Shown: positions 2,576 through 58,635 of the stretch, piece after piece
Position numbering within the stretch: the stretch's first letter is position 1
Layout of the letters: the number at the start of each line of letters is the position of its first letter
Virus record (IMG/VR): IMGVR_UViG_3300021387_000529
Span: 90,811-154,810 of that record
DNA length: 64,000 nt
DNA from: a virus
Taxonomy: Duplodnaviria; Heunggongvirae; Uroviricota; Caudoviricetes
Strand: one strand, 5' to 3'
Position numbers and translations under genes: made by a program
Notes under the pieces: model-generated
Told to the model about the DNA's origin: nothing
Database searches by the model: none
Seen by the model: only the letters and a program-made list of their open reading frames with translations

Positions 2576-2606
2576 TTCGATGCCTACTAAATAATTACTA
2601 AATATT

Positions 2607-2882
2607 ATGAAACAAAGGAGACTACGAAGTGAAATTATTGACCTGAATACTGGCCAAAAATATCACAATGAAACAGAAGCTGCTGATGCAACTGGAGTTT
2701 CTCGCTATTTGATACACAAGAGCATTGAGAAACATAAGATTTGTAAAGGTGTTGCTTTTGCGGCATATTATTATGGAATTGACATTGAATTCATGAAAAA
2801 TATGTACAATGTTGATATTAGAAAGAAAAGAGACTTCGAAGCTGAAGTGAAAAATAGAAAGGAGAAAAAATTGAATGGCTGA
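2607..2882 (+). CDS. Small NUMOD1-like HTH DNA-binding protein
   Basis: IIDLNTGQKYHNETEAADATGVSRYLIHKSI pattern. Confidence 0.55.
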   Translation: MKQRRLRSEIIDLNTGQKYHNETEAADATGVSRYLIHKSIEKHKICKGVAFAAYYYGIDIEFMKNMYNVDIRKKRDFEAEVKNRKEKKLNG

Positions 2883-3987: not shown

Positions 3988-4219
3988 GGATACGGGCTTC
4001 ACATTTGATGAGCTTTTTCACATGAGAATGGACTACTTGATGATGTTGAAAGATGTCAAAGACCAAATCATTGAAGAGCGCAACAAAGCTCAAGAAGAAG
4101 CTGAAGCTAAACAGTCTGGAGCAGGAACTAAACTTTCAAGTAATTCATTCAGTGCTTCATCGATTAAGTCTTTGGCTTCTAAGTATGGCGTTTCGATGCC
4201 TTCAGGTTTACATCTATAA
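3962..4219 (+). CDS. Small phage protein, possible tail/baseplate assembly chaperone
   Basis: GFTFDELFHMRMDYL followed by a charged helix; start uncertain. Confidence 0.4.
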   Translation: MRLIYLLSEDTGFTFDELFHMRMDYLMMLKDVKDQIIEERNKAQEEAEAKQSGAGTKLSSNSFSASSIKSLASKYGVSMPSGLHL

Positions 4220-4244
4220 AAATTATTAAAAGGTTCAATTATTT

Positions 4245-4283
4245 TTGAACCTTTTTTTATTTTCTCATATATTATGTACGTAA
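4245..4283 (+). promoter_or_regulatory. Repeated sigma70-type phage promoter
   Basis: TTGAAC-N17-TATATT-AT-N3-CGTAA; one of 11 copies. Confidence 0.8.
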
Positions 4284-4311
4284 ATCGACAATAAAAACAG
4301 GAGATACACAG

Positions 4312-5361
4312 ATGATAAACCAGGTAGAACAATCACAGGTTGAAAACAATGTTGGAAAATCACAGAGCTTCTCAATTGCTCAGAACATGAACATTCTCGA
4401 CATTCTTTCAAACAAGATGTATGAGCAGCCGATTGAAGCTATTGTTCGAGAGGTTTACAGTAACGCAATTGATGCGAACATCGAAGGTAAAACTTCTGGC
4501 AAAATTGATGTTGTCCTTCCGACTGAACAAAATCCTGTCTTCAGGGTAACAGACCATGGAATTGGTATGACTGATGAAAAAGTCAGAAAGGTTTACTGTG
4601 AGTATGGTAACTCAACTAAAGGTGACGACAACTCACAGATTGGTGGTTTTGGAATTGGTTGTAAAACACCTTTCGCTTACACTGACCAGTTCACTGTAAC
4701 AACTTCTAAGAATGGAAAGAAAAACTCATATGTTGCCTTCAAAGGTGACACTGGCTATGAGCTCGTTCCTGCTTCAAGTTCAGACTGCAATGAAAGCGGA
4801 ACTACAGTTGAAGTTCCAGTAAAACCTGAAGACATGGAAGACTTTATCGTAGCTGCTGTTAAAGTTTTCTTCTTCGCAAAAGAATTCCCGAATATGGATG
4901 AAGTTTCACTTGAAGCTTTTAAGTCATGGGTTCAAAGATGCCTTTTCCTTGAAAATAAAGATGAAGCAATGAAAGTCTATATGATTGAGCGTGTCAGAAT
5001 ACAGAATGGCTCATCATATTTCAAGAAGCTTCAGTTTGGAAACAATCTTCTTGCTGAAATTGGTGGTGTTGCATACGGTATTGACAGCAATGTTCTGAAA
5101 AATAACTTCTTCTCAGGAACAATTGTAATGCACATTCCTGTTGGTGAGGTTTCAGTTCAGGCATCTCGTGAAAAACTGAACTACAACAAAGACACAATTG
5201 CAAAGCTGAAGAAATACTTCTTGGAGTCACTCAGAAAGTTTGAAAAAGAGGTTGATGACATTCTTGAAGACAAGTCACTCAACTACATTGAAAAACACAA
5301 CTTCTGCAGACTCATCAATATTGGGCATTATGAAGATGCTGTAGACTTCTGCTGCAGATAA
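4312..5361 (+). CDS. rIIA: rIIA-like protein with GHKL (HSP90-like) ATPase domain, short form
   Basis: AIVREVYSNAIDA, DHGIGM, STKGD..QIGGFGIGCK, SGTTVEVPV, SREKL. Confidence 0.75.
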   Translation: MINQVEQSQVENNVGKSQSFSIAQNMNILDILSNKMYEQPIEAIVREVYSNAIDANIEGKTSGKIDVVLPTEQNPVFRVTDHGIGMTDEKVRKVYCEYGNSTKGDDNSQIGGFGIGCKTPFAYTDQFTVTTSKNGKKNSYVAFKGDTGYELVPASSSDCNESGTTVEVPVKPEDMEDFIVAAVKVFFFAKEFPNMDEVSLEAFKSWVQRCLFLENKDEAMKVYMIERVRIQNGSSYFKKLQFGNNLLAEIGGVAYGIDSNVLKNNFFSGTIVMHIPVGEVSVQASREKLNYNKDTIAKLKKYFLESLRKFEKEVDDILEDKSLNYIEKHNFCRLINIGHYEDAVDFCCR

Positions 5362-5400
5362 CGAAATAAAAGCTGGTTGCCATATGTTAATCTATTTTAT

Positions 5401-7287: not shown

Positions 7288-8109
7288 ATGAACTTGATTG
7301 AACTTTCAAAAGCACATAACTGGGGTCTTCCAACTGTTTGTCCAAAATGTGGTGGAGCTCTGGTTCTTTCAGAAAATCATAAACAGCTTTATTGTGGAAA
7401 CACAAACTGCAAATCTTACATCAGTGGTCGTTTGACGAAGTTTACCAACACTCTTGAAATCAAAGAGTTTGGAACAGCCACTGTTGAAAAAATCGCTGAA
7501 AAATTTGATAGTGTCAGCTGCATTTACAAAGATGATGTTTATGACTACCTCAAAACTCTTGATGGTTATGGTGAGCGCTCAATCGCTAAAATGCGAAAAG
7601 AAGTTGCTGCTCACAATGAAATGACTCTTGCAAAGTTTATCGCAGCTTTCAATATTGAAGACATTGGTGAAAAAGTTGCTCAGAAAATTATCGACAATGT
7701 TGCAGCCACAAGTCTTGAAGACCTGACTATTGCTGATGCTTCAAAATACATTGGTGATGGTGTAAAAGAAAAAACTGCTCAAAAACTTCGTGATGGCCTT
7801 GATGCTCTCAAAGATGACATGAAAGAAGTTTTGAAGTATGTCAAAATTGTTGGTGTTGAAGAACCAGTTCAGGGTAATCTCGGTGGTAAGTCATTCTGTT
7901 TCACTGGAGCTGCTTCTCGCCCACGTAAAGAACTTCAGCAGATGGTAAAAGATAATGGTGGTATTGTATTCGATTCTTGTAAAAAAGGTCTTGACTACCT
8001 CGTTCTTGCTGACCCGAACTCAACTTCTACGAAAGCTGTAAAAGCTCGCAAAGATGGCGTAAATCTCATCAGTGAAGAAGACTTCGTAAAAATGTGTGGA
8101 GGAAACTAA
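7288..8109 (+). CDS. ligA: NAD-dependent DNA ligase C-terminal part (Zn finger, HhH, BRCT), no adenylation domain
   Basis: PTVCPKCG..YCGNTNC; HhH repeats (DGYGERS, EDIGEKVA); BRCT LGGKSFCFTG..KARKDGVNLISEEDF. Confidence 0.85.
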   Translation: MNLIELSKAHNWGLPTVCPKCGGALVLSENHKQLYCGNTNCKSYISGRLTKFTNTLEIKEFGTATVEKIAEKFDSVSCIYKDDVYDYLKTLDGYGERSIAKMRKEVAAHNEMTLAKFIAAFNIEDIGEKVAQKIIDNVAATSLEDLTIADASKYIGDGVKEKTAQKLRDGLDALKDDMKEVLKYVKIVGVEEPVQGNLGGKSFCFTGAASRPRKELQQMVKDNGGIVFDSCKKGLDYLVLADPNSTSTKAVKARKDGVNLISEEDFVKMCGGN

Positions 8110-8112
8110 AAG

Positions 8113-8334
8113 ATGACACGAAACAATACAAATTTTCCAATTCGACCTTTGCGGAATAATTATGGTATTTCTGCAATTGTTGCTCCGGTCATCTATCTTG
8201 TTATATGTGCATTGAGTTCTGGAACACCAAATGATAAGTTTTCTACTTTCATCATGACGACTGGAGTTGTTGAGCTCTTCTTTTGGTTCATGTTTAATTT
8301 CTTTGGTGACTGGAGTAAGAAAAATGGACATTGA
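8113..8334 (+). CDS. Small membrane protein
   Basis: Two hydrophobic segments. Confidence 0.55.
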   Translation: MTRNNTNFPIRPLRNNYGISAIVAPVIYLVICALSSGTPNDKFSTFIMTTGVVELFFWFMFNFFGDWSKKNGH

Positions 8335-8659
8335 TTGGGGAGATATTCTAAACGAAAAAGAAGAGCATGAAAAGCTTCTTGCAGATTGCGAAAAAGCTGT
8401 TAGAAATGAGCCTGAACTTGAACACGATATGGTTGTGCGAAAGACTTGGGCAGAATATGCAAAAGACATCAACAGAATGCGTGCTCAACTTCGTTACATG
8501 AAAAAGTCTGTTGGCTACCGTGGTGGTTGTTATTCACCATATGAAAATCAAAGAGACATCATTGACTGCGAAAAAGAAATCAAACGGCTGTGCAAACTTC
8601 GAGACACTGCTAAAGCGATGGAAAAAGCATCTGGCAATAAAATGGGAGAGATGAAATAA
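8324..8659 (+). CDS. Hypothetical protein
   Basis: GGAG RBS before ATG 8324. Confidence 0.6.
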   Translation: MDIDWGDILNEKEEHEKLLADCEKAVRNEPELEHDMVVRKTWAEYAKDINRMRAQLRYMKKSVGYRGGCYSPYENQRDIIDCEKEIKRLCKLRDTAKAMEKASGNKMGEMK

Positions 8660-46172: not shown

Positions 46173-46550
46173 GGGGCATTCCTGGTTTCGACAGCTAGGT
46201 GATGTATCAAATGGTTCATGCACAGTGGTTATGACACCCTAAAAGTCAACGTAAGTAAACGACGCTAACTGTTACGAAGATGTTCGCATGGCTGCTTAGT
46301 CAGACTATGTGAATGTTGTTGGAGCAAAAAGACCCCAACCGTCAACTATCACAGGTGTTGGTAGTAAGATAGATTGGCGACACAACCACCATCTTGGAAA
46401 TCGTAGATGCGGAGCGAGAGCATGTAACGATAACGACAAAACTTGGGCAGAAACCGGTAGCTATCCCGAATCGAAAACTAGCTTAAGCATGTATAGAAGA
46501 CTATTTGTGAAAGTCTAGTATGGACATCGGTTCAATTCCGATATGCTCCA
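46173..46550 (+). ncRNA. ssrA: tmRNA, tag (A)DANCYEDVRMAA
   Basis: 5' GGGGCAT pairs with 3' ATGCTCC-A including G3:U70; GGTTTCGAC; T-arm ATCGGTTCAATTCCGAT; tag ORF 46261-46299 after the TAAAC resume motif. Confidence 0.93.
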
Positions 46551-46559
46551 CTCTAAGAT

Positions 46560-46910
46560 AAACTGCAAAACTTGCTGTTAATCTTAAAAATGAGGTATTT
46601 GGTTGTTCAGCTTCCTCACCAAAATAAAACAACCTGGTGGAGATTGGAAACCGTAAATACGGCATCCAGTTAAAAGCGGTCGGTTCGCCGAATGAAAAAC
46701 TCGATGACTTTGCTTACAATTGTGACCAAGGTTAGAGGCTCAAAAGTTAAACGTCTTGACACCGCCAAGATTGATACTTGCGAAGTTTCGGTACTTGTGA
46801 AGATGCCAGCTTCAATGGCTGGTAAGTAATGCCCATAAGTAGTTTGGGTGAGGTTGAGCTTCGCGCAAGGCTCTCAATGGAAGTTACCAAAATTAAGTAA
46901 AGACTTCCAA
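46560..46910 (+). ncRNA. Candidate structured ncRNA downstream of tmRNA
   Basis: Non-coding, raised GC, series of hairpins. Confidence 0.4.
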
Positions 46911-47033
46911 ATTTTTTGTGAAAAACTTGTTGAAGTTATGTTAATCTATTCAATGTAACATCAACTAAATAATAAAATTAAGTTGCATTTTTGGAGGTGC
47001 TACTAATTATTTTATAAGGAGAATTCATTTTCT

Positions 47034-47159
47034 ATGAGACAAACAACAACTTTATGGTTGACATTGCAAAATCCTCAAACTACTCAGAATGAAGATAGAA
47101 GAAGTCTCAATACACCAGATTTGTATAATGAAGATGAATATTACAAGAAGCGTTGCTGA
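47034..47159 (+). CDS. Putative Thr-rich leader peptide (41 aa)
   Basis: AAGGAG upstream; MRQTTTLWLT...; stop region pairs with the terminator arm. Confidence 0.5.
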   Translation: MRQTTTLWLTLQNPQTTQNEDRRSLNTPDLYNEDEYYKKRC

Positions 47160-47196
47160 TAAGAAAAATTACAAAATAAAATGTAATAAAGTTCTT

Positions 47197-47228
47197 AAAA
47201 GCAACCGCAAAAAACGGTTGCTTTTTTT
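47197..47228 (+). terminator. Terminator (attenuator) before the tRNA array
   Basis: AAAAGCAACCG-CAAAAAA-CGGTTGC-TTTTTTT. Confidence 0.85.
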
Positions 47229-47261
47229 ATGCTCTTTGACAATTTAGAGATTGGAAAACTT

Positions 47262-47343
47262 CGGGGAATGGCGGAATTGGTATACGCAACTGTCTCAAAC
47301 ACAGTCGCCGCAAGGATTGAGAGTTCAAGTCTCTCTTCCCCGA
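47262..47343 (+). tRNA. tRNA-Leu(CAA)
   Basis: Cloverleaf with long variable arm. Confidence 0.9.
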
Positions 47344-47349
47344 TTATAG

Positions 47350-47480
47350 ATTGCTAATGCAGTTACTGAGAGTTCCTTCGTGAAATGGTAAACACATTAG
47401 ACTGAAAATCTGACGCCTTTTAGGCTTGTGGGTTCGACTCCCACAGGAAATAAAAACCTCTTGGTGTTTTTCTTAGCAAT
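47350..47480 (+). ncRNA. Y-RNA-like handle RNA 1 (tRNA-Phe(GAA)-like cargo)
   Basis: ATTGCTAA/TTAGCAAT, TGCAG, ACTGAGAG/CTCTTGGT, TTCCTTC; internal D, anticodon and T arms. Confidence 0.7.
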
Positions 47481-47486
47481 TTTTAT

Positions 47487-47560
47487 GCTACCTTAGCTCT
47501 TAACGGTAGAGCACATGACTTGTAATCTTGGGGTTGTGGGTTCGAATCCCTCAGGTAGCT
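47487..47560 (+). tRNA. tRNA-Thr(TGT)
   Basis: Cloverleaf. Confidence 0.9.
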
Positions 47561-47743
47561 TACAAAGAGTTAACATGCACTCTTCAAAAAAAGCTGCGGT
47601 GACTCCATACCGAAATATGGTTGGCGCATCCCAAAGTGCACTATGCGTCATAAAACGGGCGGTTAGTGAAGCAGAAACCGTATAAAAATAGCTATTCTGC
47701 TTTTCGTAGGGTTTTGCATGCTTAAAAATCTTACAACTTTCAT

Positions 47744-47817
47744 GGGGCTATGGTGGAGTTGGTTACCACGCCTGCCTGTCACGCAGGAGGTCGCGAGTTC
47801 GATTCTCGCTAGTCCCG
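47744..47817 (+). tRNA. tRNA-Asp(GTC)
   Basis: Cloverleaf. Confidence 0.92.
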
Positions 47818-47820
47818 AAT

Positions 47821-47954
47821 AAAAACCAAAAGCAGTTGCAAAGAGTTACTTCGCAAATCGGTAATGCATTTCACTGTTAATGAAAAATTGGCTGGTTCAA
47901 CTCCAGCAGTAAAAGCCTTAAATGGTTACCTCTTTGTTCTATTCTTTGGTTTTT
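47821..47954 (+). ncRNA. Y-RNA-like handle RNA 2 (tRNA-Asn(GTT)-like cargo)
   Basis: AAAAACCAAA/TTTGGTTTTT, AGCAG, GCAAAGAG/CTCTTTGT, TTACTTC. Confidence 0.7.
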
Positions 47955-47958
47955 TCTT

Positions 47959-48031
47959 TGGGCCGTCGTCAAGTGGTAAGACCCGGGAATTTGGATCCCG
48001 TATTCCGCAGGTTCGAATCCTGCCGGCCCAG
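47959..48031 (+). tRNA. tRNA-Gln(TTG)
   Basis: Cloverleaf, U1-A72. Confidence 0.9.
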
Positions 48032-48036
48032 CTATT

Positions 48037-48283
48037 AAAAAGTGGCACAGGAAAACGTCCTGTGTTAACACGATAGGCAGTGAGGTTAAGAAATAAGCCT
48101 TCTTAGGAGTTCAAGCGAAACTGCAGTCACTTGTTCAACCGACCTTGCTGTAGGACCCCGATGAGTTGCAAATCTAGGGGATAAGGTACACCCTGTTATT
48201 AGAAGTGAGCTTACGTAGCAAGAGTCTTCTCGAAAGCGTGATAGTGCGTGGCCACGCTGAAGAAACATCATGTGTCACTTTTT
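48037..48283 (+). ncRNA. Candidate ~245-nt structured ncRNA
   Basis: Ends pair: AAAAAGTGGCACA/TGTGTCACTTTTT. Confidence 0.45.
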
Positions 48284-48288
48284 ATTAT

Positions 48289-48360
48289 GGCCGCCTCGTC
48301 TAGTGGTTAGGACGCGAGGTTTTCATCCTTGTAACAGCAGTTCGATTCTGCTGGTGGCTA
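48289..48360 (+). tRNA. tRNA-Glu(TTC)
   Basis: Cloverleaf. Confidence 0.9.
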
Positions 48361-48366
48361 AAATAT

Positions 48367-48463
48367 AAAATGTTTTAATGCAGTGTTAAACGGTTACTTC
48401 TACTTTTCTTTTCAGGAAAAATATAGGATATACCAACCGTTTTCGTTTTTCTTAAAACATTTT
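48367..48463 (+). ncRNA. Y-RNA-like handle RNA 3 (minimal cargo)
   Basis: AAAATGTTTTAA/TTAAAACATTTT, TGCAG, AAACGG/CCGTTT, TTACTTC. Confidence 0.65.
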
Positions 48464-48469
48464 TTATAT

Positions 48470-48541
48470 GGTTCCGTCGGCTAACGGTTAGGCCATCTGG
48501 TTTTCATCCAGAGAACGAGTGTTCGACTCACTTCGGAACTA
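48470..48541 (+). tRNA. tRNA-Glu(TTC)
   Basis: Cloverleaf. Confidence 0.88.
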
Positions 48542-48728
48542 ACGCGCTCACCTGAACTTAGCACTAGGACGGTGAGAATAGTTGGTTATAGCTAAGTAAC
48601 GCGAACTATAGGTTGCAAAGTAAGCAGAGGTGAACGCCAAGCCAAATGCTCATGATGAATACCTGCTATAAGCTCGAAGGATGCTGCGGCAAGCCAGTGT
48701 TTAAGCTCGAAAGTTCATCAACTTTTTT

Positions 48729-48800
48729 CGGAATGTGGGCCAAAGGTTGGTCGCTAGTTTTGGGAACTAGATTATGATAGTTCGAGTCTATTCATTCCGA
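48729..48800 (+). tRNA. tRNA-Pro(TGG)
   Basis: Cloverleaf, CGG start. Confidence 0.82.
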
Positions 48801-48932
48801 CTTTGAAATCCGCAGTTGTTTATCCATGGTAAGGGCAGCTGAAAACTATATCAAGCTTTTAGTATTGGAGCGAAAGTTTGGCTAGAATGTCTTTGATATA
48901 GAGGTTAAGTATGGTCTTAGCCAACCCTATTT

Positions 48933-49016
48933 GGGATGTTATACCGTAAGTGGTAGCGGGGCAGACTGTAAATCTGTTGCCTTCGGGCTCGGGGAGTTCG
49001 ACTCTCTCACATCCCA
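48933..49016 (+). tRNA. tRNA-Tyr(GTA)
   Basis: Cloverleaf with long variable arm. Confidence 0.88.
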
Positions 49017-49019
49017 TCA

Positions 49020-49214
49020 CAGTTTCTTCATAGAGTACGGCGGCGTCAAGCATAGGCGCCCTAAGGTATCAACCAAATGCATGGCCGGAGAACGGAGCTT
49101 CGTGAGACAGCACATTTGCAAAATCGTACCTTTTATAAGCTGTCAGGTGCTTCATTGGAAGAAAGGACTGAGATTAAACGATAACTCAGCTCGGGGCCGT
49201 TGACGAAGAAACTG
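49020..49214 (+). ncRNA. Candidate ~195-nt structured ncRNA
   Basis: CAGTTTCTTC/GAAGAAACTG and ACGGC/GCCGT close the element. Confidence 0.45.
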
Positions 49215-49221
49215 CTTTTAT

Positions 49222-49306
49222 GCTACAGTCGCATAGCGGTTGATTGCGCCGGATTTGTAATCCGGAGGTGTAAAAGCCCACGGGGGTTCGAATCCCTCCT
49301 GTAGCT
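49222..49306 (+). tRNA. tRNA-Thr(TGT) with unusual long variable arm
   Basis: Cloverleaf; variable region AGGTGTAAAAGCCCAC. Confidence 0.85.
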
Positions 49307-49439
49307 TCGAGACGTAACACGATGGTGAGTAAGCGTTAGTCATGTGTTAAAACCATCAAAAATGGTTATGTTAAAGAGAAGTTTAGCAAAATCGTTAAGT
49401 GACCTCAATTTTCACGTGGTCGATTAGCATAACTTTTAT

Positions 49440-49513
49440 GGCCTATTAGCTCTAATGGTCAGAGCGGATCCCCGTTAAGGATACGGTTGCAGGTTCGAGT
49501 CCTGCATAGGCCG
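49440..49513 (+). tRNA. tRNA-Asn(GTT), C33 variant
   Basis: Cloverleaf; loop CCGTTAA. Confidence 0.85.
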
Positions 49514-49528
49514 CATACAATGTTTTAT

Positions 49529-49601
49529 GGGATGTTAGCTCTAGCGGTAGAGCGGAGGACTGTTAATCCTTAGGTCGCAGGTTCGAACCCTGCACATCCC
49601 G
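49529..49601 (+). tRNA. tRNA-Asn(GTT)
   Basis: Cloverleaf. Confidence 0.92.
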
Positions 49602-49732
49602 TCTTTTACCAACCTTCTTCTATGTTGGTTGGTCGGTGCTTAAACTACGATTACCGAAAGGTTAGAGTCCCACCACAAAGCCATGTTGGTTGTTGAGTTC
49701 ACGGCTATAAAATGCAACTCAACTTCTGTTTT

Positions 49733-49807
49733 GGTGCTGTAGTTCATCTGGATCAGAACAAATGACTTCTAATCATTAGGTAGGGGGTTCAAGTCCCTCC
49801 AGCATCA
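49733..49807 (+). tRNA. tRNA-Arg(TCT)
   Basis: Cloverleaf. Confidence 0.9.
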
Positions 49808-49835
49808 AAAAAAAATAAAAATATTTCAAAATTTT

Positions 49836-49874
49836 TTGAATATTTTTGAATTTCTTCATATATTATAATCGTAA
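49836..49874 (+). promoter_or_regulatory. Repeated sigma70-type phage promoter driving a non-coding region
   Basis: TTGAAT-N17-TATATT...CGTAA. Confidence 0.8.
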
Positions 49875-49876
49875 AT

Positions 49877-50410
49877 CAGCTGCTGATAACGATAAGCTGC
49901 TCGGTTAAATAAGTGAGGGAAAATATGACGTAGGTACGGTGAGTTATTCAACGCAAATAAGTCGTAACGGTGAGATGCTGAAAAGCTCACATCGGTAACA
50001 AAGAGACCATGATGAAATGGTTGGCCGGATTGGTTCACAATAAGGAAGTGTGGTTCACTTCACGAAAATGAGACCGAATCAATTAAAAGTTCTTCACTCT
50101 AAGCTTGAGCCGAAAGGTAGAAATAGCTACGAGAAAGGTTTTTGAAGAACTTCCAGCTGGTAGTAACAGCTGACTGTAAAGACAGAATTACGAACCATGT
50201 AGAAAATGTTGGATCCGTGAAGCTCACAAAGCTGGAGTAACGGCAAGGTTCAAGTCCTTGTTCTACATTGAGATGGGTTCTATACAGTGTCCCACCTGAA
50301 ATGACAAAAGACTGGAGTAACCCCTAGCTATGGGAAGGTTAAACTGGACCTGCAAATAGCAAAAAGGCATACGGGTAATTCCTTTCCCACTGGGTTCCTT
50401 ATACCTACAA
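49877..50410 (+). ncRNA. Candidate large (~530 nt) structured ncRNA with embedded tRNA-like module
   Basis: Own promoter, no ORF, long-range stems, T-arm/acceptor module at 50197-50268. Confidence 0.55.
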
Positions 50411-50417
50411 TTTTTTT

Positions 50418-50502
50418 GGGTTTGTCCGCTAATTGGCAAAGCCTGCAGTTAAAGCCTACAATGGAGAGCTGCAGAATGTGAGTTCGAGTCTCATCAAATC
50501 CA
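50418..50502 (+). ncRNA. tRNA-like RNA with ~20-nt anticodon loop
   Basis: Acceptor GGGTTTG/CAAATCC, D loop, T arm, CTGCAG stem with enlarged loop. Confidence 0.65.
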
Positions 50503-50700
50503 CTATTACAAAGTTCTGAGAGGCATCTTAGAAAATACTTTGTGAGAAACGATTCTTCATAAAAAGGTGAGATAACAGCCAGTAGGTGAATAATAATCAC
50601 CATCTCGTTGAGCGCCTGGCATACGAAACCGAAGAGTAAGGACGAAGGCCAAGACCTGAAACGGAGAACGAATAGACCCGAGGGTACGGGGTCTCTAAAG

Positions 50701-50900
50701 CGATGAGCTACCGAGTGTAAATGCGTAAAAAGAGAGTAGAGCTTGTAACTCGAAATCTGGGATATGGGAAAGTCCTCGCTGGAAGAAACAAACTGAAGCG
50801 GAAGTTGCTAGCCAAAAGTAAGTTTGCAGAAATCGGGAATACTAGGGTCCACCACGGTGGAAACATGGTTATGCTGAAGGTTCGACTCCTTCTCCATCGA
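50701..50900 (+). ncRNA. tRNA-like RNA with large internal insertion (tentative)
   Basis: T arm GAAGGTTCGACTCCTTC; CGATG/CATCG acceptor-like closure. Confidence 0.4.
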
Positions 50901-51021
50901 CTTCTGGGTGTTGATACTTGTGAGCTCGCGGGGTTCCTTTCACAAGTGTAGCCTGCCCCGCAAATATGAAGGACTGGGACTATTCGCGATTGTTCTGGTC
51001 TGGGGGAAACGCGTTCCCCAC

Positions 51022-51181
51022 TGCAGTGTAGTGTAAACGGTGCACAGGAGCTGCTAGTAAGTGACAATAGGGCCTGACAATAGTCTACGACCTGCTTTGA
51101 GCAGATGACGGGACGACGATAGGGCCTGACGATAACCGAACCACAGCTCCAGGAGCGAGGTTCAAATCCTTGTTACTGCAA
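51022..51181 (+). ncRNA. tRNA scaffold with ~90-nt insert in the anticodon loop carrying a duplicated motif
   Basis: TGCAGTG/TACTGCA, D arm, GGAGCTG/CAGCTCC, T arm. Confidence 0.7.
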
Positions 51182-51184
51182 TAA

Positions 51185-51364
51185 AAAAGCTACAAAGCAG
51201 AATGAGACAGTTACTTCAAAATCATGCTTTGGGTGCCGTGTGTTGTAGGTTCGAGTCCTACCAGCTCTCTATAAAGCCTATTAAGGTGTGAGAGATGTAG
51301 CTCAATGGTAGAGCAACGTAAAAAATTTCGAAACTATACTGTTTCGCTTATTCTTGTAGCTTTT
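51185..51364 (+). ncRNA. YrlA-like Y RNA (handle RNA 4, permuted T-acceptor-D module)
   Basis: Handle motif plus T arm GTAGGTTCGAGTCCTAC upstream of D arm GCTCAATGGTAGAGC. Confidence 0.8.
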
Positions 51365-51370
51365 GTTTTT

Positions 51371-51443
51371 GGGATATTGGTAAAATGGTGCATACGCCTG
51401 ACTGTCACTCAGGAGAGCGCGAGTTCAATTCTCGCATATCCCG
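51371..51443 (+). tRNA. tRNA-Asp(GTC)
   Basis: Cloverleaf. Confidence 0.88.
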
Positions 51444-51677
51444 TACGTTAAAGTTCCAGACCAATCACACGCAAAATCCAGAACTGAAACTGAGACGTAA
51501 AAAACGGTTGTAAAACAAGCATGTTAACCAGAGTTGGCCGTAATAATCAAACTCGAGCATGTGCTACCACGACAGGTTACGGTGATATTTGTGTGGTTCC
51601 GACGGAAAGTGCAGGTTGCAAATAATGAACCTGTCCCTGCACTTAGCTTTTTACTTTGAAAAACGGAGGCAAAACTT

Positions 51678-52175
51678 ATGAAAAATAAACCTTCTAAGTT
51701 TTATGTCTATTGGATAGAGTTCAAAATGAAAGATGGTTCTATTAAGAACAACACTTTCATATATGACTTCAAAAATAAACGTGTCGTAATTGACACTAAA
51801 AAAACAATTGGTAAGTTCTTCTATTTTGGAGACTGGGCAAACCTTTTAACTGGTAAACCACGACCAAATGTAACTTACAGAGGAAAGTTTGCACGCAGAA
51901 ATGCTAAAACATATGCTGAGTACATCCAGTATGAGTTGGAATATGATGCAAAGGGATTTCAGCAAAAAGTTGATGCTGGTCTGAAAGCAATTCCAGATGC
52001 TGTATCAGCTAAAGTACGGTTTGGCCGTGCAAATTCAAAATGTGTTCCATTCAAAAGTGATGTTCGAGAAATCGACCGTTACAGAATGAACAAAAAGACT
52101 AGGATTGGTTTTTGTAGCAATATATTGCGAGAAATTCCAAATCGTAGCCAAGTAACTTCGGCGCTATATAGTTAA
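51678..52175 (+). CDS. Basic hypothetical protein inside the RNA island
   Basis: GGAGG RBS, 165 aa. Confidence 0.7.
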   Translation: MKNKPSKFYVYWIEFKMKDGSIKNNTFIYDFKNKRVVIDTKKTIGKFFYFGDWANLLTGKPRPNVTYRGKFARRNAKTYAEYIQYELEYDAKGFQQKVDAGLKAIPDAVSAKVRFGRANSKCVPFKSDVREIDRYRMNKKTRIGFCSNILREIPNRSQVTSALYS

Positions 52176-52195
52176 TCTATATAACATATATTTTT

Positions 52196-52728
52196 GCCCT
52201 TCGCCATTTAGGGCCCCCAGAGAGTTGCGCAACTCGTTTGAATGGGAGTCTGGCGTATCCAAGCGGTGAATGGAGGGTGAATGTGCGTGTATTTTCGGAG
52301 ACGCCTTCACTTAGTAGTTCACTGGCAGAATGTCGAAATCGAGGTGATTATCATCCGAATGAATCCCTCATGCGCTTCTTGGAAAAAGGTTAAACCAGTA
52401 CAGTGCGGGTCATGCCGTGGAAGGGCGCTACTGCAATTATAAGTCTTACGGAATGAAGAGTTGGTAACTCTCGTAATCCTGCGCAAGCGTGTAAAAAGCG
52501 CCCCGAGATTCAGGTGAGAAACGGAAAAACTTCCAATGTAAGAGAGTGAGAGTGGTTACAACCTAGACTACACACTCAAGTAAGTTGCTGCTTATCAAGA
52601 TGAAAGTTAATATCTTGTTGGGAATTTGCAATCCTGTAAAAAGACTGGAGTATGAGGTCATTCCGAAAGAAACAGACAACGATGCACGTGAAACAACTGC
52701 GTAGCTAACACGTAAAATAAGACTGCGT
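52196..52728 (+). ncRNA. Candidate large structured ncRNA(s), two closed domains
   Basis: GCCCTTC/GAAGGGC; AGTCTTA/TAAGACT; CGGAATGA/TCATTCCG. Confidence 0.5.
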
Positions 52729-52732
52729 GCCA

Positions 52733-52806
52733 CGGGCAATAGACCAGTTGGTTAAGCCGCTTCGCCTGGGACGAAGAGATCGGGGGTTCGAATCCCTCTT
52801 GCCCGA
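52733..52806 (+). tRNA. tRNA-Pro(TGG), C33 variant
   Basis: Cloverleaf; loop CCTGGGA. Confidence 0.85.
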
Positions 52807-52878
52807 AAATCGAGAGAGTCGACTATCTCGAGAGTAGACTACATGTTTATTGTGTACAGGTATCATGCAGTTGAATAA

Positions 52879-52950
52879 TGGACTATAGTTTAGCTGGAAG
52901 AATGCTGGCCCTTAGTGCTGGAGGCGTAAGTTCGGATCTTACTAGTCCAT
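52879..52950 (+). tRNA. Atypical tRNA with TTA anticodon (pseudo-tRNA or ochre suppressor)
   Basis: TGGACTA/TAGTCCA; loop CCTTAGT; T loop TTCGGAT. Confidence 0.55.
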
Positions 52951-53001
52951 CTATATGGAGGAAATGCTTATGACTTATCATTAGGATAGGAGATTATCCA
53001 A

Positions 53002-53280
53002 ATGAGTAATAGTTATACAGAGTCCGCATTTTATCGTGAAAACATTCGTTACAGAAATCGTGGAACACGGAAAGGTAAAATTTTCAATCGTGTTTGGACA
53101 CGATACATGAAGCGAGCAGTTGTTTCGACTAACAATTGGTTGATTAACCAGAAAAAGTCGTATAGACGTCAAGAATTGAAAAGAATTGACATCAATTCTG
53201 ACGACGAATTGATTGAGGTAATCGAGGCCAATATTGCTGACACTTACAAAGATGTTGCACAATGGTATTGGTTCGATTAA
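53002..53280 (+). CDS. Hypothetical protein
   Basis: AGGAG RBS. Confidence 0.65.
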   Translation: MSNSYTESAFYRENIRYRNRGTRKGKIFNRVWTRYMKRAVVSTNNWLINQKKSYRRQELKRIDINSDDELIEVIEANIADTYKDVAQWYWFD

Positions 53281-53338
53281 TATAATTGTTGATTGGGCCT
53301 CTTGAACAGCTTTCGAAAGAGAGACAAGAGGTCATTAT

Positions 53339-53468
53339 AAAAAGCTTTATCAACGTTGGTTCGATTCCAACCGACTTCTCATCCGTGAGGGTACATGTAT
53401 GGCTTGCAGAAATTGAATGCAGGTAGAGGAGCCGTAGTTTAGTATGGCGAGAACCAGTAGAGTTTTTT
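53339..53468 (+). ncRNA. Second permuted tRNA mimic (YrlA-like topology, no handle motif)
   Basis: 12-bp closing stem; T arm GTTGGTTCGATTCCAAC precedes acceptor stem and D arm. Confidence 0.6.
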
Positions 53469-53473
53469 ATTAT

Positions 53474-53545
53474 GGTTCGTTAGAACAGTGGTTAGTTTGC
53501 AAGACTCTCAATCTTGAGACATGGGTTCGAATCCCTTACGAACTA
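53474..53545 (+). tRNA. tRNA-Glu(CTC)
   Basis: Cloverleaf. Confidence 0.85.
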
Positions 53546-53572
53546 GAAATCCATTTTTATACTAATTATTCT

Positions 53573-54190
53573 ATGGAAAGAATAAGGTATATTTATGAGA
53601 TTAAAAATTTGGTTAATGGAAAAACTTACATTGGCCAGCATACTTTGAGGGAAGGACGCACTTTTGAAACTGATGTTTATTATGGTTCTGGAGTTCTTAT
53701 AAATAGAGCTCAAAGAAAATACGGTTTAGAAAACTTTGAAAAAACGATTGTTATTTCAGGATTTTTTACTAAAGAGCAAATAAACCGTTTTGAAAGGTGC
53801 ATGATTAGGATTGAACGATTCTTAGGAAAAGCAGAATATAATATTGCTGACGGTGGTGAAGGTTGGAGTGAAGGCATGAGAGAAGCTCATAAAGCATCCA
53901 TGACACCAGAACACAATCAGAAAATATCAGAAGCCAATAAAGAGCGTTTAGCAAAAATGTCACCTGAAGAGCGTTCAAAAAAATGTTTTGGCGGTAAGCA
54001 TAATAGTTTTCTTGGACGTCATCATACAGATGAGTATAAAAAATACATGTCTGAACGAATGAAAGGAAATCTTATTGGTTCTAAGAACGGCTCTTTTGGA
54101 AAGAGATGGTGGACAAATGGAAAAGAAAATATAAAAGCTGAAGTTTGTCCTGAAGGTTTTAGGCCTGGAAGGACTTGTCGAACTAAATAA
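53573..54190 (+). CDS. GIY-YIG homing endonuclease with NUMOD3-like tail
   Basis: YIYEIKNLVNGKTYIGQH, YYGSG, YNIADGG, GRHHTDE; start moved to ATG 53573. Confidence 0.9.
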   Translation: MERIRYIYEIKNLVNGKTYIGQHTLREGRTFETDVYYGSGVLINRAQRKYGLENFEKTIVISGFFTKEQINRFERCMIRIERFLGKAEYNIADGGEGWSEGMREAHKASMTPEHNQKISEANKERLAKMSPEERSKKCFGGKHNSFLGRHHTDEYKKYMSERMKGNLIGSKNGSFGKRWWTNGKENIKAEVCPEGFRPGRTCRTK

Positions 54191-54196
54191 CTATAT

Positions 54197-54270
54197 AGGT
54201 GAGTGGCTACAATGGTACAGCAGCGGTCTCCAAAACCGCCATTTTGCAAGTTCGAGTCTTGCCTCGCCTA
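54197..54270 (+). tRNA. tRNA-Trp(CCA)
   Basis: Cloverleaf. Confidence 0.9.
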
Positions 54271-54278
54271 ATACACAT

Positions 54279-54355
54279 AGCAGGTTGAAGCACTGGTTGT
54301 GGCTTACGAGGCTCATAACCTCGACATCAGGGTGGTTCGATTCCACCACCTGCCA
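54279..54355 (+). tRNA. tRNA-Met(CAT), initiator-like
   Basis: Cloverleaf with 1:72 mismatch (A:C). Confidence 0.85.
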
Positions 54356-54356
54356 T

Positions 54357-54514
54357 AAAAACATAAAAAGCAGATGTTGCGGTTACTTCTATACAAATTA
54401 AGCAAATTTGGTCGCTCAATTAAAATAGGCTGACTGCGCATTATAATCGGGGCACAGAGCGCTGTGTGACTCAGCAAATCCCGTTTCCCGCGACGAGTAT
54501 TCTTTTATGTTTTT
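54357..54514 (+). ncRNA. Y-RNA-like handle RNA 5
   Basis: AAAAACATAAAA/TTTTATGTTTTT, AGCAG, GTTGCGG/CCGCGAC, TTACTTC, TATTC. Confidence 0.7.
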
Positions 54515-54520
54515 TCATAT

Positions 54521-54593
54521 TCTCCCGTAGCATAGTTGGTAGTGCATCGGACTCTGGATCCGTATCGGGTGCGTTCGAGTCGTACCGGGAGAA
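54521..54593 (+). tRNA. tRNA-Gln(CTG)
   Basis: Cloverleaf, U1-A72. Confidence 0.82.
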
Positions 54594-54782
54594 CTTAAAA
54601 GTAGATGCTGCGAAAGCGTGAAGTCAAGCGTTAGTAGTACCATAAAGCATAAAGTGAAATCTTTCAATGCGCTGAAATGCGAGGGTCTATTTTTCGAATA
54701 GAATAGGCTGCATTGGAGGAAAGTCTTCATGAATGACAAGTGGAGTCACAAGTTCTAGTTGGTTACTTGTCTAGAACACCAA

Positions 54783-54868
54783 CGGTCTGTGGTGCAACTG
54801 GCTGAGACACATCGCGCTTAGAACGCGACACATTAGAAACATTGAGAGTTCAAATCTCTCCGGGCCGA
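54783..54868 (+). tRNA. tRNA-Leu(TAG)
   Basis: Cloverleaf with long variable arm. Confidence 0.88.
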
Positions 54869-54891
54869 TTAATCTATAAATTATAAAATCC

Positions 54892-54980
54892 TACTTCTAA
54901 AAGCGGGATTAGCTGTTACTTCATTTTGAACTCATATCTCAAATAACAAGCTAAACAGCAATCAATTTTCTTTGGAGGTA
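54892..54980 (+). promoter_or_regulatory. Handle RNA 6 in the Ro60 leader, sequestering the Shine-Dalgarno sequence
   Basis: TACTTCTAAA pairs with TTTGGAGGTA; AGCGG, GCTG/CAGC, TTACTTC, TTTTC. Confidence 0.7.
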
Positions 54981-54986
54981 TTCTAT

Positions 54987-56648
54987 ATGTCAAGAATCTC
55001 AAAAGCTGCAAAAGCAGTTCGTGAGTCAGAGGTTTTGCGCTCTGACGAAATCGTTAAAAACTTCATGGGTGGCGACTCTTACAAGCTCGACCCACTTTCT
55101 ACACTTCGCGTCATCGCTGCATCTTCAATTTTTGGTGAAGCATCTTATTACAGAGACAACGTAAAAGACTCCAAAGTTGAGACAATAGACCTTGGTGCTC
55201 GTTTTGGCACAGACAGTGATGAACTCAACAAATGGCTCAAGTCTTTTAATGGCCAGTCAACTACAACTGTATTCACAAAAGCGATTGATGCTGCTTTGGA
55301 CTATGACTTCGAAGGAACTTTGAAGCTCGCAGTAGAACTTCGTAAGAACTACAATATGCGCCTCAATCCTCAGGTTATCATGGTTCGTGCATCAACAAAT
55401 GCAAAGCGTGCTGCTTTCACTGAGAAAAATCCAGGAAAATTCTTGGAGTATGAGTCACAGGTAATGTCACGCGCTGATGAGCCAATCACTCAGCTTGCCT
55501 ATTACATCGCAACTAACAAAGGCAAGAAAAAGATGCCAACAATCTTGAAGAAAGCGGTTGCTAAAAAGCTCAGCTCTCTTGATGCATTTGCAGTTAACAA
55601 ATATAAGAATGCTGAAATCGGTATGATTAACGCAGTTCGTTTGTCACACGCAAATTCTGCAGTTCTTGATGAGTTGATGAAAACTGGTTCAGTTAAAGTC
55701 GAGGAAAATTCTAAGACTTGGGAACAGTTGAAGTCTGAAGGAAAAACTTGGAAGGAAATCCTTTCAACAATCAAACTTGGACATATGGCACTTTTGCGCA
55801 ACCTTCGTAACATCTTCACAGAGATTGACGACACAGAACTTTGTAAAGAGGTTCTCGACCAGTTGAAGAAAGGCGTTGTTAAAGGCAAGCAGTTCCCATT
55901 CCGCTATTACAGCGCTTACAAGATGATTGAGCAGGCTGACAAGATGCATCACAGACCAATGGTTCTTGATGCTCTTGAAGAGTGTATCGACATCTCTATT
56001 GCAAATATGCCACACTTGAAAGGCAAAACAATGTGTTTGTCTGACAATTCAGGTTCTGCTTGGGGCACTGTTACAACTGAGTATGGTTCTGTACGTATTG
56101 CTGAGATTGACAACTTGTCATCAGTTATTACAGCTATGGCCTCAGATGAGGGATATGTCGGTAAGTTTGGTGACAAATTGATTGTAAAACCAGCATCAAA
56201 GAGAAATGGCGCACTTGCACAGACAAAAGAGCTTACACACAATAAATGTGATGATGTTGGTGGTGGAACTGAGGGTGGTATCTGGGAGTTCTTCAAGAAT
56301 GCTATCGACAACAAAGAGAAGTATGATAACATCATAATCTACAGTGATATGCAGGCTGGAACTGGTGGACTTTATGGTACAGATAAGCACATCTCAGAAT
56401 ATCGTAAACGTGGATATGACATCGGCTCACATGTAAATGTGTACAAACTTATCCAGGACTACCGTAAGAAAGTCAACCGTAAATGCAATGTAATGTGCGT
56501 ACAAACAGCAGGTTATGACAATATGGTTGTTCCACAGATGTCATATCGTACAGCACTTTGTACTGGTTGGACTGGAAAAGAAGCATCTTTCTTGGACGCT
56601 TATGCAAAAGAGTGGGATGCTGTTGAAAATAAGAACAACAAGCAGTAA
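54987..56648 (+). CDS. rsr: Ro60 / TROVE-domain RNA-binding protein with vWA domain
   Basis: ~553 aa; NFMGG.SY, LR..YNMRLNP, TWEQLKS, MALLRNLRN, QFPFRYYSAY, MIDAS DNSGS, IYSDMQ; start ATG 54987 after GGAGG. Confidence 0.92.
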   Translation: MSRISKAAKAVRESEVLRSDEIVKNFMGGDSYKLDPLSTLRVIAASSIFGEASYYRDNVKDSKVETIDLGARFGTDSDELNKWLKSFNGQSTTTVFTKAIDAALDYDFEGTLKLAVELRKNYNMRLNPQVIMVRASTNAKRAAFTEKNPGKFLEYESQVMSRADEPITQLAYYIATNKGKKKMPTILKKAVAKKLSSLDAFAVNKYKNAEIGMINAVRLSHANSAVLDELMKTGSVKVEENSKTWEQLKSEGKTWKEILSTIKLGHMALLRNLRNIFTEIDDTELCKEVLDQLKKGVVKGKQFPFRYYSAYKMIEQADKMHHRPMVLDALEECIDISIANMPHLKGKTMCLSDNSGSAWGTVTTEYGSVRIAEIDNLSSVITAMASDEGYVGKFGDKLIVKPASKRNGALAQTKELTHNKCDDVGGGTEGGIWEFFKNAIDNKEKYDNIIIYSDMQAGTGGLYGTDKHISEYRKRGYDIGSHVNVYKLIQDYRKKVNRKCNVMCVQTAGYDNMVVPQMSYRTALCTGWTGKEASFLDAYAKEWDAVENKNNKQ

Positions 56649-56815
56649 TTTACAATGGTGACAGTTTGCTACTGAGCAATGAGGCCATGCGTTACGGAAA
56701 TGGCCTCATAAAATTGCAAAAAGCTAAACTGCAGAGCATGCTATGGGAGTCGTAACCTCTCATTTCAGCCAACTGTTTAAGAGCGGTTTCACCTGCGTCA
56801 GGTTGGCAATTTTTT

Positions 56816-56897
56816 CGGTCAGTGGCGGAATTGGCATACGCATCTGATTTAAGCTCAGACGCCGTGAGGATTGAGAGTTCAAGTCTCTCCTGGCCGA
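56816..56897 (+). tRNA. tRNA-Leu(TAA)
   Basis: Cloverleaf with long variable arm. Confidence 0.9.
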
Positions 56898-56907
56898 CTA
56901 TATTCTT

Positions 56908-57183
56908 ATGATGAATGAAGAACTACTTAAAGACATTGTTGAAAGCAACTTAAGTGCAGATGCAAAAGTTGAGCTCATGAAGCTTCTTCTCAGAGATAAA
57001 GAAAAGATTGCTCAGCCTTATGAAGTAGTCTATCCTTATATTATTGAGAAAAGAATTACACCACAGGATTGGGACCCTTACAAAGTTACATGTGAAGAAA
57101 GCGGTGACTCTCTATGGTGGAAGCAACACATAGCAAATGCAGCTGCAGATTGTGTAACAAATAATCCTGTAGTCTATAACTAA
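56908..57183 (+). CDS. Hypothetical protein
   Basis: 91 aa ORF. Confidence 0.6.
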   Translation: MMNEELLKDIVESNLSADAKVELMKLLLRDKEKIAQPYEVVYPYIIEKRITPQDWDPYKVTCEESGDSLWWKQHIANAAADCVTNNPVVYN

Positions 57184-57860: not shown

Positions 57861-58635
57861 ATAAAAAGAGTGATGGTTGTGCCAAGTGCTCAATCATTAA
57901 GAGGTCGATTTTTTCGATACTCTTTAGAGAATGGCCAGGGAGTCCTAACAGATGCTGGACGGCTTAATCATCTTGCTGAACGGTGGCAAGGCATTCTCTT
58001 AACGTTTTAGTTATTATCGTAAAATAACTTGGCGGTCGGGAGTGCTTCTGGCACTCGACTATTCGGCTTAGAGAATTAAAACCTAAGCAATTGAACAAGG
58101 AAAAGTTCTAAAAATCCGCGGATAACACAAGTTGGCGTGATATTCTTGTGGAACGGCCTATTGCATATTAGTTTCCGGTGGAAATCCGGCAGCGAGCAAG
58201 TATGAAGGCATAGGGGCAACGAGATAATGAGAGTTCATTATCCAATCGAATTTAAGATTCGGATAAAGCTAAGGGTCTGCAGCTCTAGAAACCCAAAGCA
58301 TGAAAGCCCAACAACGGTTAGAGTCGGGCAACATTCCATTGACAGTACCCGCCGTAGTGTTATAAAAACCCACTAGGACGGAGGCATGTTGATAACGAAC
58401 AGATAAGATGGAACTCAACGACTCGGATAGTTTTACCAATAAGCTGCTTGTCTCCGAACACTAAGGGTAATATGATGTTGCGCTAGTCCCTCACGGTGGT
58501 GGACAGAAAAACTACGGAAACTTACATGTGGGCGATGAAGCCCACCTTCATTAAAAGGAACCTGGTTCGGTAATCTCAGTATCCATCTGAAAGCCTGTGT
58601 CGCGTAATGCTAGTCAGGAAAGTGCCACTTTTTAT
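57861..58635 (+). ncRNA. Candidate giant (~775 nt) ornate ncRNA (GOLLD/ROOL size class)
   Basis: No ORF, raised GC, more than ten hairpins, next to a tRNA array. Confidence 0.55.

Follow-up and report, generated by a model that had tools for sequence, protein, structure and literature searches.

Ro60 and Y RNAs in bacteria and phages

In the established pattern, several Y RNAs share one Ro site and differ from one another in the modules that they carry. Ro60 itself is a ring-shaped RNA-binding protein that takes up Y RNA at the outer surface of the ring and the ends of misfolded RNAs in its cavity, and Y RNAs depend on Ro60 to be stable. Here, we describe a window of 64,000 nucleotides (nt) of Caudoviricetes DNA (IMG/VR record IMGVR_UViG_3300021387_000529, positions 90,811 to 154,810), in which a gene for the protein Ro60 is accompanied by six small RNA elements, E1 to E6, that close different cargoes with one and the same terminal structure, which we call the handle. 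Bacterial and phage Ro60 orthologues, named Rsr, were described together with the Y RNAs YrlA and YrlB by Chen et al. 2014 (PMC4201824), who proposed GNCGAAN0-1G as the Rsr site, related to the metazoan GGUCCGA; in M. smegmatis, a single precursor gives rise to both YrlA and YrlB, and RNase P cleaves YrlA (PMC4201824). Phage Ro60 proteins with Y RNAs are already published as well (PMC4201824), including the one of Thermus phage phiLo (PMC12135203), and the phiLo paper credits Chen et al. 2014 with Y RNA-like non-coding RNAs in phage G. Associations of Ro60, Y RNA, and PNPase are described in D. radiodurans and Salmonella (PMC4201824, PMC12135203), and the phiLo Ro60 has been reported to bind the PNPase of its host (PMC12135203).

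We found that the six RNAs of the window form one covarying family tied exclusively to one clade of Ro60, and the best reading of this family is a diverged, expanded, and clade-specific Ro60/Y-RNA partnership, not a new kind of system. The preliminary description of the window had put it forward as a candidate new phage Ro/Y-RNA system, and of this claim the single RNA family tied to Ro60 stands, while the novelty of the system is lost because the E4 cargo is of the YrlA type and phage Ro60 proteins with Y RNAs were already in print. As in Rsr/YrlA-YrlB loci, the Ro60 gene has several same-strand small RNAs within 4 kb (on the + strand, from the end of E4 at 51364 to the start of Ro60 at 54987), with E4 enclosing a mimic of a T arm, an acceptor-like stem, and a D arm within a terminal stem as YrlA does, the remaining RNAs joining a common stem to different modules as YrlB and Yrn2 do, and all of them appearing to be processed from a common precursor. 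In contrast to Rsr/Yrl loci, the terminal stem has the motifs WGCRG, UUACUUC, and TWTTC instead of GNCGAAN0-1G, there are 6-9 copies per genome against 1-2, some modules mimic an entire cloverleaf, anticodon loop included, real tRNAs stand between the copies, no rtcBA neighbour is present, and the Rfam scores stay below threshold.

Architecture and covariation of the handle

The source genome of the window is that of a complete phage (300,878 bp, direct terminal repeats, 35% G+C), and all six elements lie on the + strand, at 47348-47482 (E1), 47821-47954 (E2), 48367-48463 (E3), 51185-51364 (E4), 54357-54514 (E5), and 54892-54980 (E6) when their outer stems are extended. The positions and the common architecture given in the preliminary description are borne out, with a geometry tighter than was claimed there. 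The elements are 89-180 nt long; in each, a long stem interrupted by an internal loop joins the two ends of the RNA, and the distal module is variable. On the 5' side, an outer stem with AA at its end and a length of 8 bp or more is followed by W-GCRG, by 9-10 nt of which the last 6-8 belong to the inner stem and end in G, and by TTMCTTC; on the 3' side, the cargo of 33-121 nt is followed by the inner stem, a spacer ending in TWTTC, TT, and the outer stem. The spacing is fixed in 6/6 copies on both strands, with GCRG 9-10 nt ahead of TTMCTTC and with 15 nt from the start of the 3' inner stem to the end of TWTTC. Every one of the stem pairs listed earlier does pair, and the stem sequences have nothing in common between copies, with the loop motifs fixed. 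Given stems that differ completely and loops that stay constant, we ruled out a mobile-repeat origin of the elements.

By itself, TTMCTTC is not enriched in the genome (27 matches vs. 23.4 expected); the composite GCRG-N8-11-YTMCTTC was observed seven times against 1.76 expected, with 6/7 matches clustered in 7.6 kb on one strand and the seventh, at genome position 288322, lacking both a 3' partner and a match to the covariance model (CM). This model (R1), built from 13 short copies, found no copy in the complete genome of the phage outside the 7.6 kb upstream of Ro60; the copy numbers that it gives are lower bounds, because it penalises long cargo, so that E5 was missed and E4 only half-aligned. 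Minimum free energy (MFE) folds recovered both the outer and the inner stems of E1, E2, E3, and E6, and the stems of E5 appeared in the centroid fold.

The pairing of the handle is maintained by compensatory changes. In a plain MAFFT alignment of 13 hand-picked copies, 91.7% of the cells pair, compared with 35-50% in slid controls, and double changes that preserve pairing occur in 13 of the 14 handle pairs. With 51 copies, in an alignment that was fitted to the CM itself, unlike the MAFFT one, 94.1% of the cells pair (33-48% in the slid controls), 234 cells have double changes, and none of 500 shuffles reached the score.

The loop consensus was taken from 59 well-formed copies of 14 genomes, after excluding 7 of 66 elements because the automatic finder mis-assigned their 3' partner. 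It reads GA, W, GC, R, G, N, inner stem, G, and UUACUUC on the 5' strand, and inner stem, N4, (U)AUUC, and UC on the 3' strand. The closing pairs are AA/TT in 6/6 window copies and GA/TC in every other genome, and the AA/TT of the window lineage is a compensatory change made in concert; in phage G, all seven copies have GCGG together with a 3' ending ...ATC or ...AAC in place of the usual ...TTC. That such loop changes are concerted within a genome argues for a partner encoded by the same genome. The R of GCRG and base three of the 3' pentamer are mostly A-T, twice G-C, and several times G-T, with G.A in every phage G copy and three cases of A.C, a covariation that is at most suggestive of a bulged helix. 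In such a helix W would be bulged out, and the pairs G-C, R-U, and G.A would be formed with a C.U mismatch after the first of them; it would recall the bulged helix by which animal Y RNAs are bound by Ro. The metazoan Y RNAs Y1, Y3, Y4, and Y5 resemble the present family further in that one protein is served by several RNAs, each with a conserved terminal helix containing a bulge or internal loop and with a variable distal loop, which in metazoans recruits different partners; they differ from it in sequence motif, in transcription and processing route, and with respect to the tRNA-like modules.

Cargoes of the individual elements

The cargoes are of the types recognised earlier: a Phe(GAA)-like body, an Asn(GTT)-like body, a hairpin, a permuted T-acceptor-D module, a multi-hairpin, and a short loop. 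E1, located by regular expression (regex) and stem search (CM 33.3 bits, E 7e-5; Rfam tRNA 48.4 bits; both stems in the MFE fold), carries a cloverleaf that resembles tRNA-Phe(GAA) but is degenerate, the D stem having 3 bp, the variable arm being long, and the acceptor containing a G.A mismatch (ARAGORN, Rfam), and its motif variant TTCCTTC forms acceptor positions 3-7 plus U8. E2 (CM 32.8 bits; Rfam tRNA 44.5 bits over model positions 3-68; ARAGORN; MFE fold) carries a tRNA-Asn(GTT)-like body, again with a 3-bp D stem and with a weak and incomplete acceptor. In both, the anticodon and T arms are good, the 5' strand of the acceptor is the invariant handle motif, and the 3' end continues into the handle. 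Ordinary-looking genes for tRNA-Phe(GAA) and tRNA-Asn(GTT), two of each, are found elsewhere in the same genome. The cargo of E3 is a single 36-nt hairpin (CM 62.1 bits, E 6e-12; MFE fold).

E4 is the element that connects this family with the known Y RNAs. All of its handle positions pair (6/6 inner, 8/8 outer), its CM match being partial (16.3 bits) because of the long cargo, which consists, in this order, of a T arm, a closed acceptor-like stem, and a D arm, that is, a YrlA-type tRNA mimic. The Rfam YrlA model (RF02553) matches 51217-51349 with 38 bits (E 1.6e-5) in a cmscan alignment that covers model positions 1-114 and includes the T loop GGTTCGAGTCC and the D arm TAGCTCAATGGTAGAGC. With a YrlA-type cargo inside it, the handle takes the place that the Ro-binding stem has in YrlA and in other Y RNAs. 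YrlA-like matches below threshold occur in other phages too (phage G, 36 bits; CcrColossus, 42 bits), and a YrlA-type module lies inside a handle not only in the window, but also in phage G and in several other loci (e.g., L009, L013, L147, L148, and L149). The comparison with Rfam Y RNA and YrlA models proposed in the preliminary description gave, then, a sub-threshold YrlA match for the cargo of E4 and no family for the handle: over the elements, at E values up to 10, only tRNA and the sub-threshold YrlA overlap meaningfully, and at gathering thresholds Rfam reports only tRNAs and the transfer-messenger RNA (tmRNA) in the window.

E5, found by regex, confirmed by pairing (6/6 inner, 8/8 outer), and conserved in the close relatives L002 and L009, has a cargo of about 98 nt with several hairpins, which belongs to no known family; the CM missed E5 because of this cargo length. 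E6 is the best CM match of the genome (69.5 bits, E 1e-13), with a 33-nt loop containing a small hairpin, and it doubles as the 5' leader of the Ro60 mRNA: on the 3' side, its outer stem (TTTGGAGG) holds the Ro60 Shine-Dalgarno sequence, whose GGAGG is paired in the MFE fold, with the ATG at 54987 being 8 nt past it. Short-cargo copies in the window (54892-54980) and in three other loci (L006:19606-19688, L011:11847-11930, and L001:11256-11340) have in common a small hairpin CAA...TTGAAA and an A-rich ...CTAWA tail ahead of the inner stem; having this similar hairpin and tail in different phages, they look like orthologues of one minimal member and not like unrelated inserts. Across the family, a T arm is recognisable in about 21 of the 59 cargoes and not in the other 38 or so.

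The Ro60 protein

The product of the open reading frame (ORF) at 54987-56648 (+ strand, 553 amino acids) is a genuine Ro60 (Rsr/TROVE2) orthologue, made of a HEAT-repeat ring and a vWA domain with the MIDAS motif D-N-S-G-S. It matches Pfam PF05731 TROVE (2.5e-11, 43.8 bits with a cut-off of 23), PHROG 850 "RNA-binding protein" across residues 20-532 (1.2e-47), and, by phmmer, the Ro60 of Thermus phage phiLo in the Protein Data Bank (PDB 9KOP/9L5Y, 1.2e-16). The protein was modelled by AlphaFold2 with 11 homologues; the model has a mean predicted local distance difference test score (pLDDT) of 79, with a Rossmann-like β/α region starting at residue 344, and its first 13 Foldseek matches in the PDB are all Ro60 proteins, from phiLo, Xenopus, human, and Deinococcus (E 5e-16 to 1.5e-9, TM-scores 0.53-0.76), and matches ranked below these 13 are vWA domains. 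The MIDAS residues D353-N-S355-G-S357 are invariant in 12 homologues, and the N-terminus MS(R/K)xS is also conserved. This is the only TROVE gene of the genome, and its closest named relative is gp540 of Bacillus phage G (50% identity).

The closest solved structure is that of phiLo Ro60 (PMC12135203; PDB 9KOP, 9L5Y), at only about 20-26% identity. There too, a phage Ro60 has Y-like RNAs (Yrl1/Yrl2) directly beside its gene; unlike the present ones, the RNAs of phiLo were selected for having CGAA within a large bulge, and the handle CM finds nothing at the phiLo locus.

Linkage of the handle to one Ro60 clade

Co-occurrence of the motif with TROVE genes, proposed as a check in the preliminary description, is what we observed: in all related genomes examined that are complete or nearly so, the handle accompanies this clade of Ro60, exclusively near the gene and on the same strand. 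We fetched 14 IMG/VR loci by means of the Ro60 protein and examined the phage G locus as well. By regex, 12 of the 14 loci hold 2-7 handle copies, and the CM added copies with variant motifs, including three in locus L010; in the 15 Ro60 loci, all 60 CM matches are on the Ro60 strand. Within five related genomes, 161-497 kb in size, 23/23 CM matches fall within about 8 kb of Ro60, and in six complete or near-complete genomes handle elements never occur away from it. The four distant Ro60 phage loci searched with the CM (SRB7757, cr111_1, CcrColossus, and phiLo) gave no handle match, and this, together with the concerted loop changes described above, fits co-evolution with a genome-encoded factor.

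The family has so far been found in Bacillus phage G and in about 16 uncultured large-phage contigs. At the gp540 locus, phage G has seven copies of the same handle, five of them in tandem in the 1-kb gap upstream of gp540, a sixth 2 kb upstream that encloses the YrlA-like module, and a seventh in the tRNA/tmRNA cluster; unlike those of the window, the phage G copies have GA/TC closing pairs and are mostly in tandem, not separated by tRNAs. A motif-first scan of IMG/VR with 15 specified bases, whose matches are mostly due to chance, gave among the 80 loci listed four that passed the CM well and a fifth that did so weakly, one contig being already known, and provided at least three further large contigs, each with a 61%-identical Ro60 and 4-6 elements directly downstream. 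By megablast against GenBank phages, the region 47200-57000 has only short tRNA matches and no near relative.

The handle family is not confined to phages. This Ro60 clade is encoded, at 50-61% identity, in 140 stretches of bacterial genomes or metagenome-assembled genomes (MAGs), mostly of rumen and gut Clostridia with some isolates. We fetched 80 of them and found CM matches (E up to 0.001) in 35 of these 80 Bacillota loci, without exception on the strand of Ro60 and for the most part no farther than about 0.7 kb from it. In Bacillus sp. Brlt_9, a 743-kb contig (L235:5398-5824 and 7724-8560) has three handle RNAs just upstream of a Ro60 of the same clade; a microbial-type PARG gene lies just downstream of this Ro60, and the remaining neighbours have no Pfam match. 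The Brlt_9 stretch may be a prophage or island, and many of the handle-bearing Bacillota contigs may themselves be phage or prophage DNA.

Among the ORFs of window positions 40-64 kb, only Ro60 has homologues in all 13 loci, and because nothing else is shared we rejected the possibility that another neighbouring protein is the handle partner. The genes next to Ro60 have no function assigned by Pfam or PHROG.

The tRNA array and the genome setting

Ro60 and the handle RNAs lie on the + strand within 46173-56898, where ARAGORN calls a tmRNA and 24 tRNAs, every one of them on this strand too. The part of the array that brackets the handle RNAs (47261-54868; ARAGORN, Rfam) includes tRNAs for Leu (47261-47344), Thr (47487-47560), Asp (47743-47818), Gln (47959-48032), Glu (48288-48361), Glu (48469-48543), Asp (51370-51444), Met (54278-54356), Gln (54521-54594), and Leu (54783-54868). 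The close adjacency to tRNA 3' ends described earlier was confirmed for E1-E5, with upstream gaps of 0-5 nt: 3 nt for E1, 2 nt for E2, 5 nt for E3, 0 nt for E5, and 4 nt for E4, which comes after the 3' end, at 51180, of a tRNA-like gene whose anticodon loop contains about 90 inserted nt. A further tRNA follows each of E1-E5 after 4-6 nt. Across genomes, a tRNA is within 12 nt upstream of 16/59 elements and within 12 nt downstream of 15/59, and the elements without an adjoining tRNA are mostly in tandem with one another.

Several observations on the surroundings were made in addition. The tmRNA gene at the head of the array (46173-46553, + strand; Rfam 68 bits) encodes the tag peptide DANCYEDVRMAA, and a strong terminator-like hairpin (47197-47225, + strand; 11 bp followed by a T run) lies 35 nt ahead of the first tRNA. 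A tRNA with the anticodon TTA, at 52879-52951 (+), would read the TAA stop codon, and phage G has an equivalent annotated tRNA (tta). The tRNA-like gene that precedes E4 (51022-51181, +) has acceptor, D, and T arms, with its insert enclosed by the anticodon stem, and is not called by ARAGORN, while the "tRNA-Phe(AAA)" that is called at 50418-50503 (+) has an oversized loop and a low Rfam score (34.9 bits). Directly 3' of tRNA-Glu(CTC) (53473-53546) there is a GIY-YIG homing endonuclease gene (53444-54190, +; PHROG 314, 1.8e-26; Pfam SegE-like), and since its listed start overlaps that tRNA, the gene probably begins at a later position. Downstream of Ro60, at a distance of about 7 kb, a gene of the CCA-adding enzyme/poly(A) polymerase family begins at 63622 and runs off the window at 64000 (+; genome 154495-154872; PF01743, 107.6 bits), and its phage G counterpart, gp522, is about 10 kb upstream of the phage G Ro60. 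A second tRNA cluster, outside the window at genome positions 723-5387 (- strand), has 18 tRNA genes, including two for tRNA-Phe(GAA), and no handle RNAs. Finally, inside the tRNA array and beyond it, the long ORF-poor spacers 47561-47742, 48033-48287, 48544-48728, 52196-52728, and 57861-58635 may hold more structured RNAs; in these five we found no Rfam match and no handle.

A probable Ro60 docking site and its alternatives

Most likely, Ro60 docks on the handle, and the RNAs function as Y RNAs, a reading that we draw from sequence and genome comparison and hold with good confidence. The docking module would consist of the closing helix, an asymmetric internal loop (W-GCRG on the 5' side, TWTTC on the 3' side), an inner helix of 6-8 bp, and a single-stranded UUACUUC at the junction. 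The distal modules, that is, the YrlA-type mimic, the two cloverleaf mimics, and the hairpins, would gate Ro60 or tether it to different host partners, which by analogy with the Ro60-Y RNA-PNPase particles are likely to be tRNA-recognising or RNA-decay enzymes, and the T arms in the cargoes point to the former. The RNAs would be co-transcribed with the tRNA array and would acquire their ends from the maturation of the flanking tRNAs, by RNase P at the downstream tRNA and by 3' processing at the upstream one; we infer this route for the RNA ends, and the layout of the locus fits it. As for E6, its being both the best CM match and the partner of the Ro60 Shine-Dalgarno sequence suggests autoregulation: the leader would sequester the ribosome-binding sequence, and free Ro60 could repress its own translation.

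Several observations weigh against this reading. All the links between the handle and Ro60 are of a genomic kind. In the handle region, 59/59 copies lack the published Ro-site motif GNCGAAN0-1G, which has one match inside a cargo, just as the preliminary description had judged the motif to be unlike the known site, and the handle has only a weak C-N-G resemblance to the residues protected by D. radiodurans Rsr (PMC4201824). The YrlA score of E4 (38 bits) is well below the gathering score of 69, and its MFE fold keeps the outer stem but refolds the inner-stem region, with an alternative local hairpin at 51329-51346. The Shine-Dalgarno sequence is sequestered by the last copy in the lineage of the window, L002, and L009 only, and not in other genomes. 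RtcB, which the preliminary description had suggested looking for elsewhere in the genome, and an Rnl2-type ligase were both searched for there and are absent, so that the analogy with the rsr-yrl-rtcBA repair operon does not carry over.

The absence of the canonical Ro-site motif also speaks for a handle that is recognised by a factor other than Ro60, such as a host RNase or a tRNA-processing or -modifying enzyme, or that is a mere scaffold stabilising the inserts, with Ro60 adjoining it only through a common RNA-metabolism operon. The invariance of UUACUUC across Ro60 proteins that are just 50-60% identical would fit a conserved host protein as well, e.g., an S1/KH domain of PNPase. We nevertheless regard this explanation as unlikely, given that Ro60 is the only gene common to all loci, that no element lies away from it in the six complete or near-complete genomes, that the concerted loop changes within genomes point to a partner from the same genome, and that the YrlA module is enclosed exactly at the place of the Ro site in Y RNAs. 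If, on the other hand, E1 and E2 were working tRNA genes, the handle would pair leader with trailer as a signal in tRNA precursor processing, and the remaining copies would be decayed tRNA genes. ARAGORN and Rfam do call both of them tRNAs (48 and 44 bits) inside a tRNA array, but the genome has its ordinary-looking Phe(GAA) and Asn(GTT) genes, E1 and E2 have D stems of 3 bp, acceptor mismatches, and an acceptor strand set by the invariant motif, most members have no recognisable T arm, and the phage G copies are in tandem with no tRNA between them, all of which makes this proposal very improbable. Variable stems with invariant loops, placed tightly against tRNAs, are also typical of small ribozymes, and there are published tRNA-linked phage ribozymes as a precedent, so that the internal loop and junction could be imagined as a self-cleaving or catalytic RNA that helps to cut the tRNA array. 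We give this idea the lowest probability of all, close to negligible: no Rfam ribozyme family matches at E up to 10, the tie to Ro60 and the enclosure of YrlA would be left unexplained, and the tandem arrays of phage G have no tRNAs to process.

Beyond docking, the family could be taken, in this phage as in its relatives, as one Ro60 loaded with interchangeable tRNA-shaped decoys or adaptors, which would absorb host anticodon nucleases or other tRNA-targeting defences, or would lead damaged tRNAs to decay, with the leader mimic matching the Ro60 level to the supply of RNA. This extended version of the Ro60/Y-RNA partnership is, in our estimate, unlikely.

Implications for Ro60 and Y RNA biology

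The handle family is absent from Rfam and, within the literature that we searched, from publications, since no paper was found on the handle motif, on the handle shared with phage G, or on the other six copies of phage G. Its covariance model can serve to annotate RNAs that Rfam currently misses. Very few cases of Ro60-RNA recognition are known outside animals, and here the family offers well over a hundred natural variants of a compact candidate docking motif (W-GCRG, UUACUUC, and TWTTC in a fixed geometry), placed next to the Ro60 of a single clade, which is found in phage G-like phages and in many Bacillota. It also bears on what the variable parts of Y RNAs recruit, with a natural series of cargoes that goes from a bare hairpin to a T arm, to a YrlA module, and to a full cloverleaf. 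In a Bacillus system, the recognition of these RNAs by Ro60, the recruitment of partners, and the possible autoregulation of Ro60 are all directly testable.

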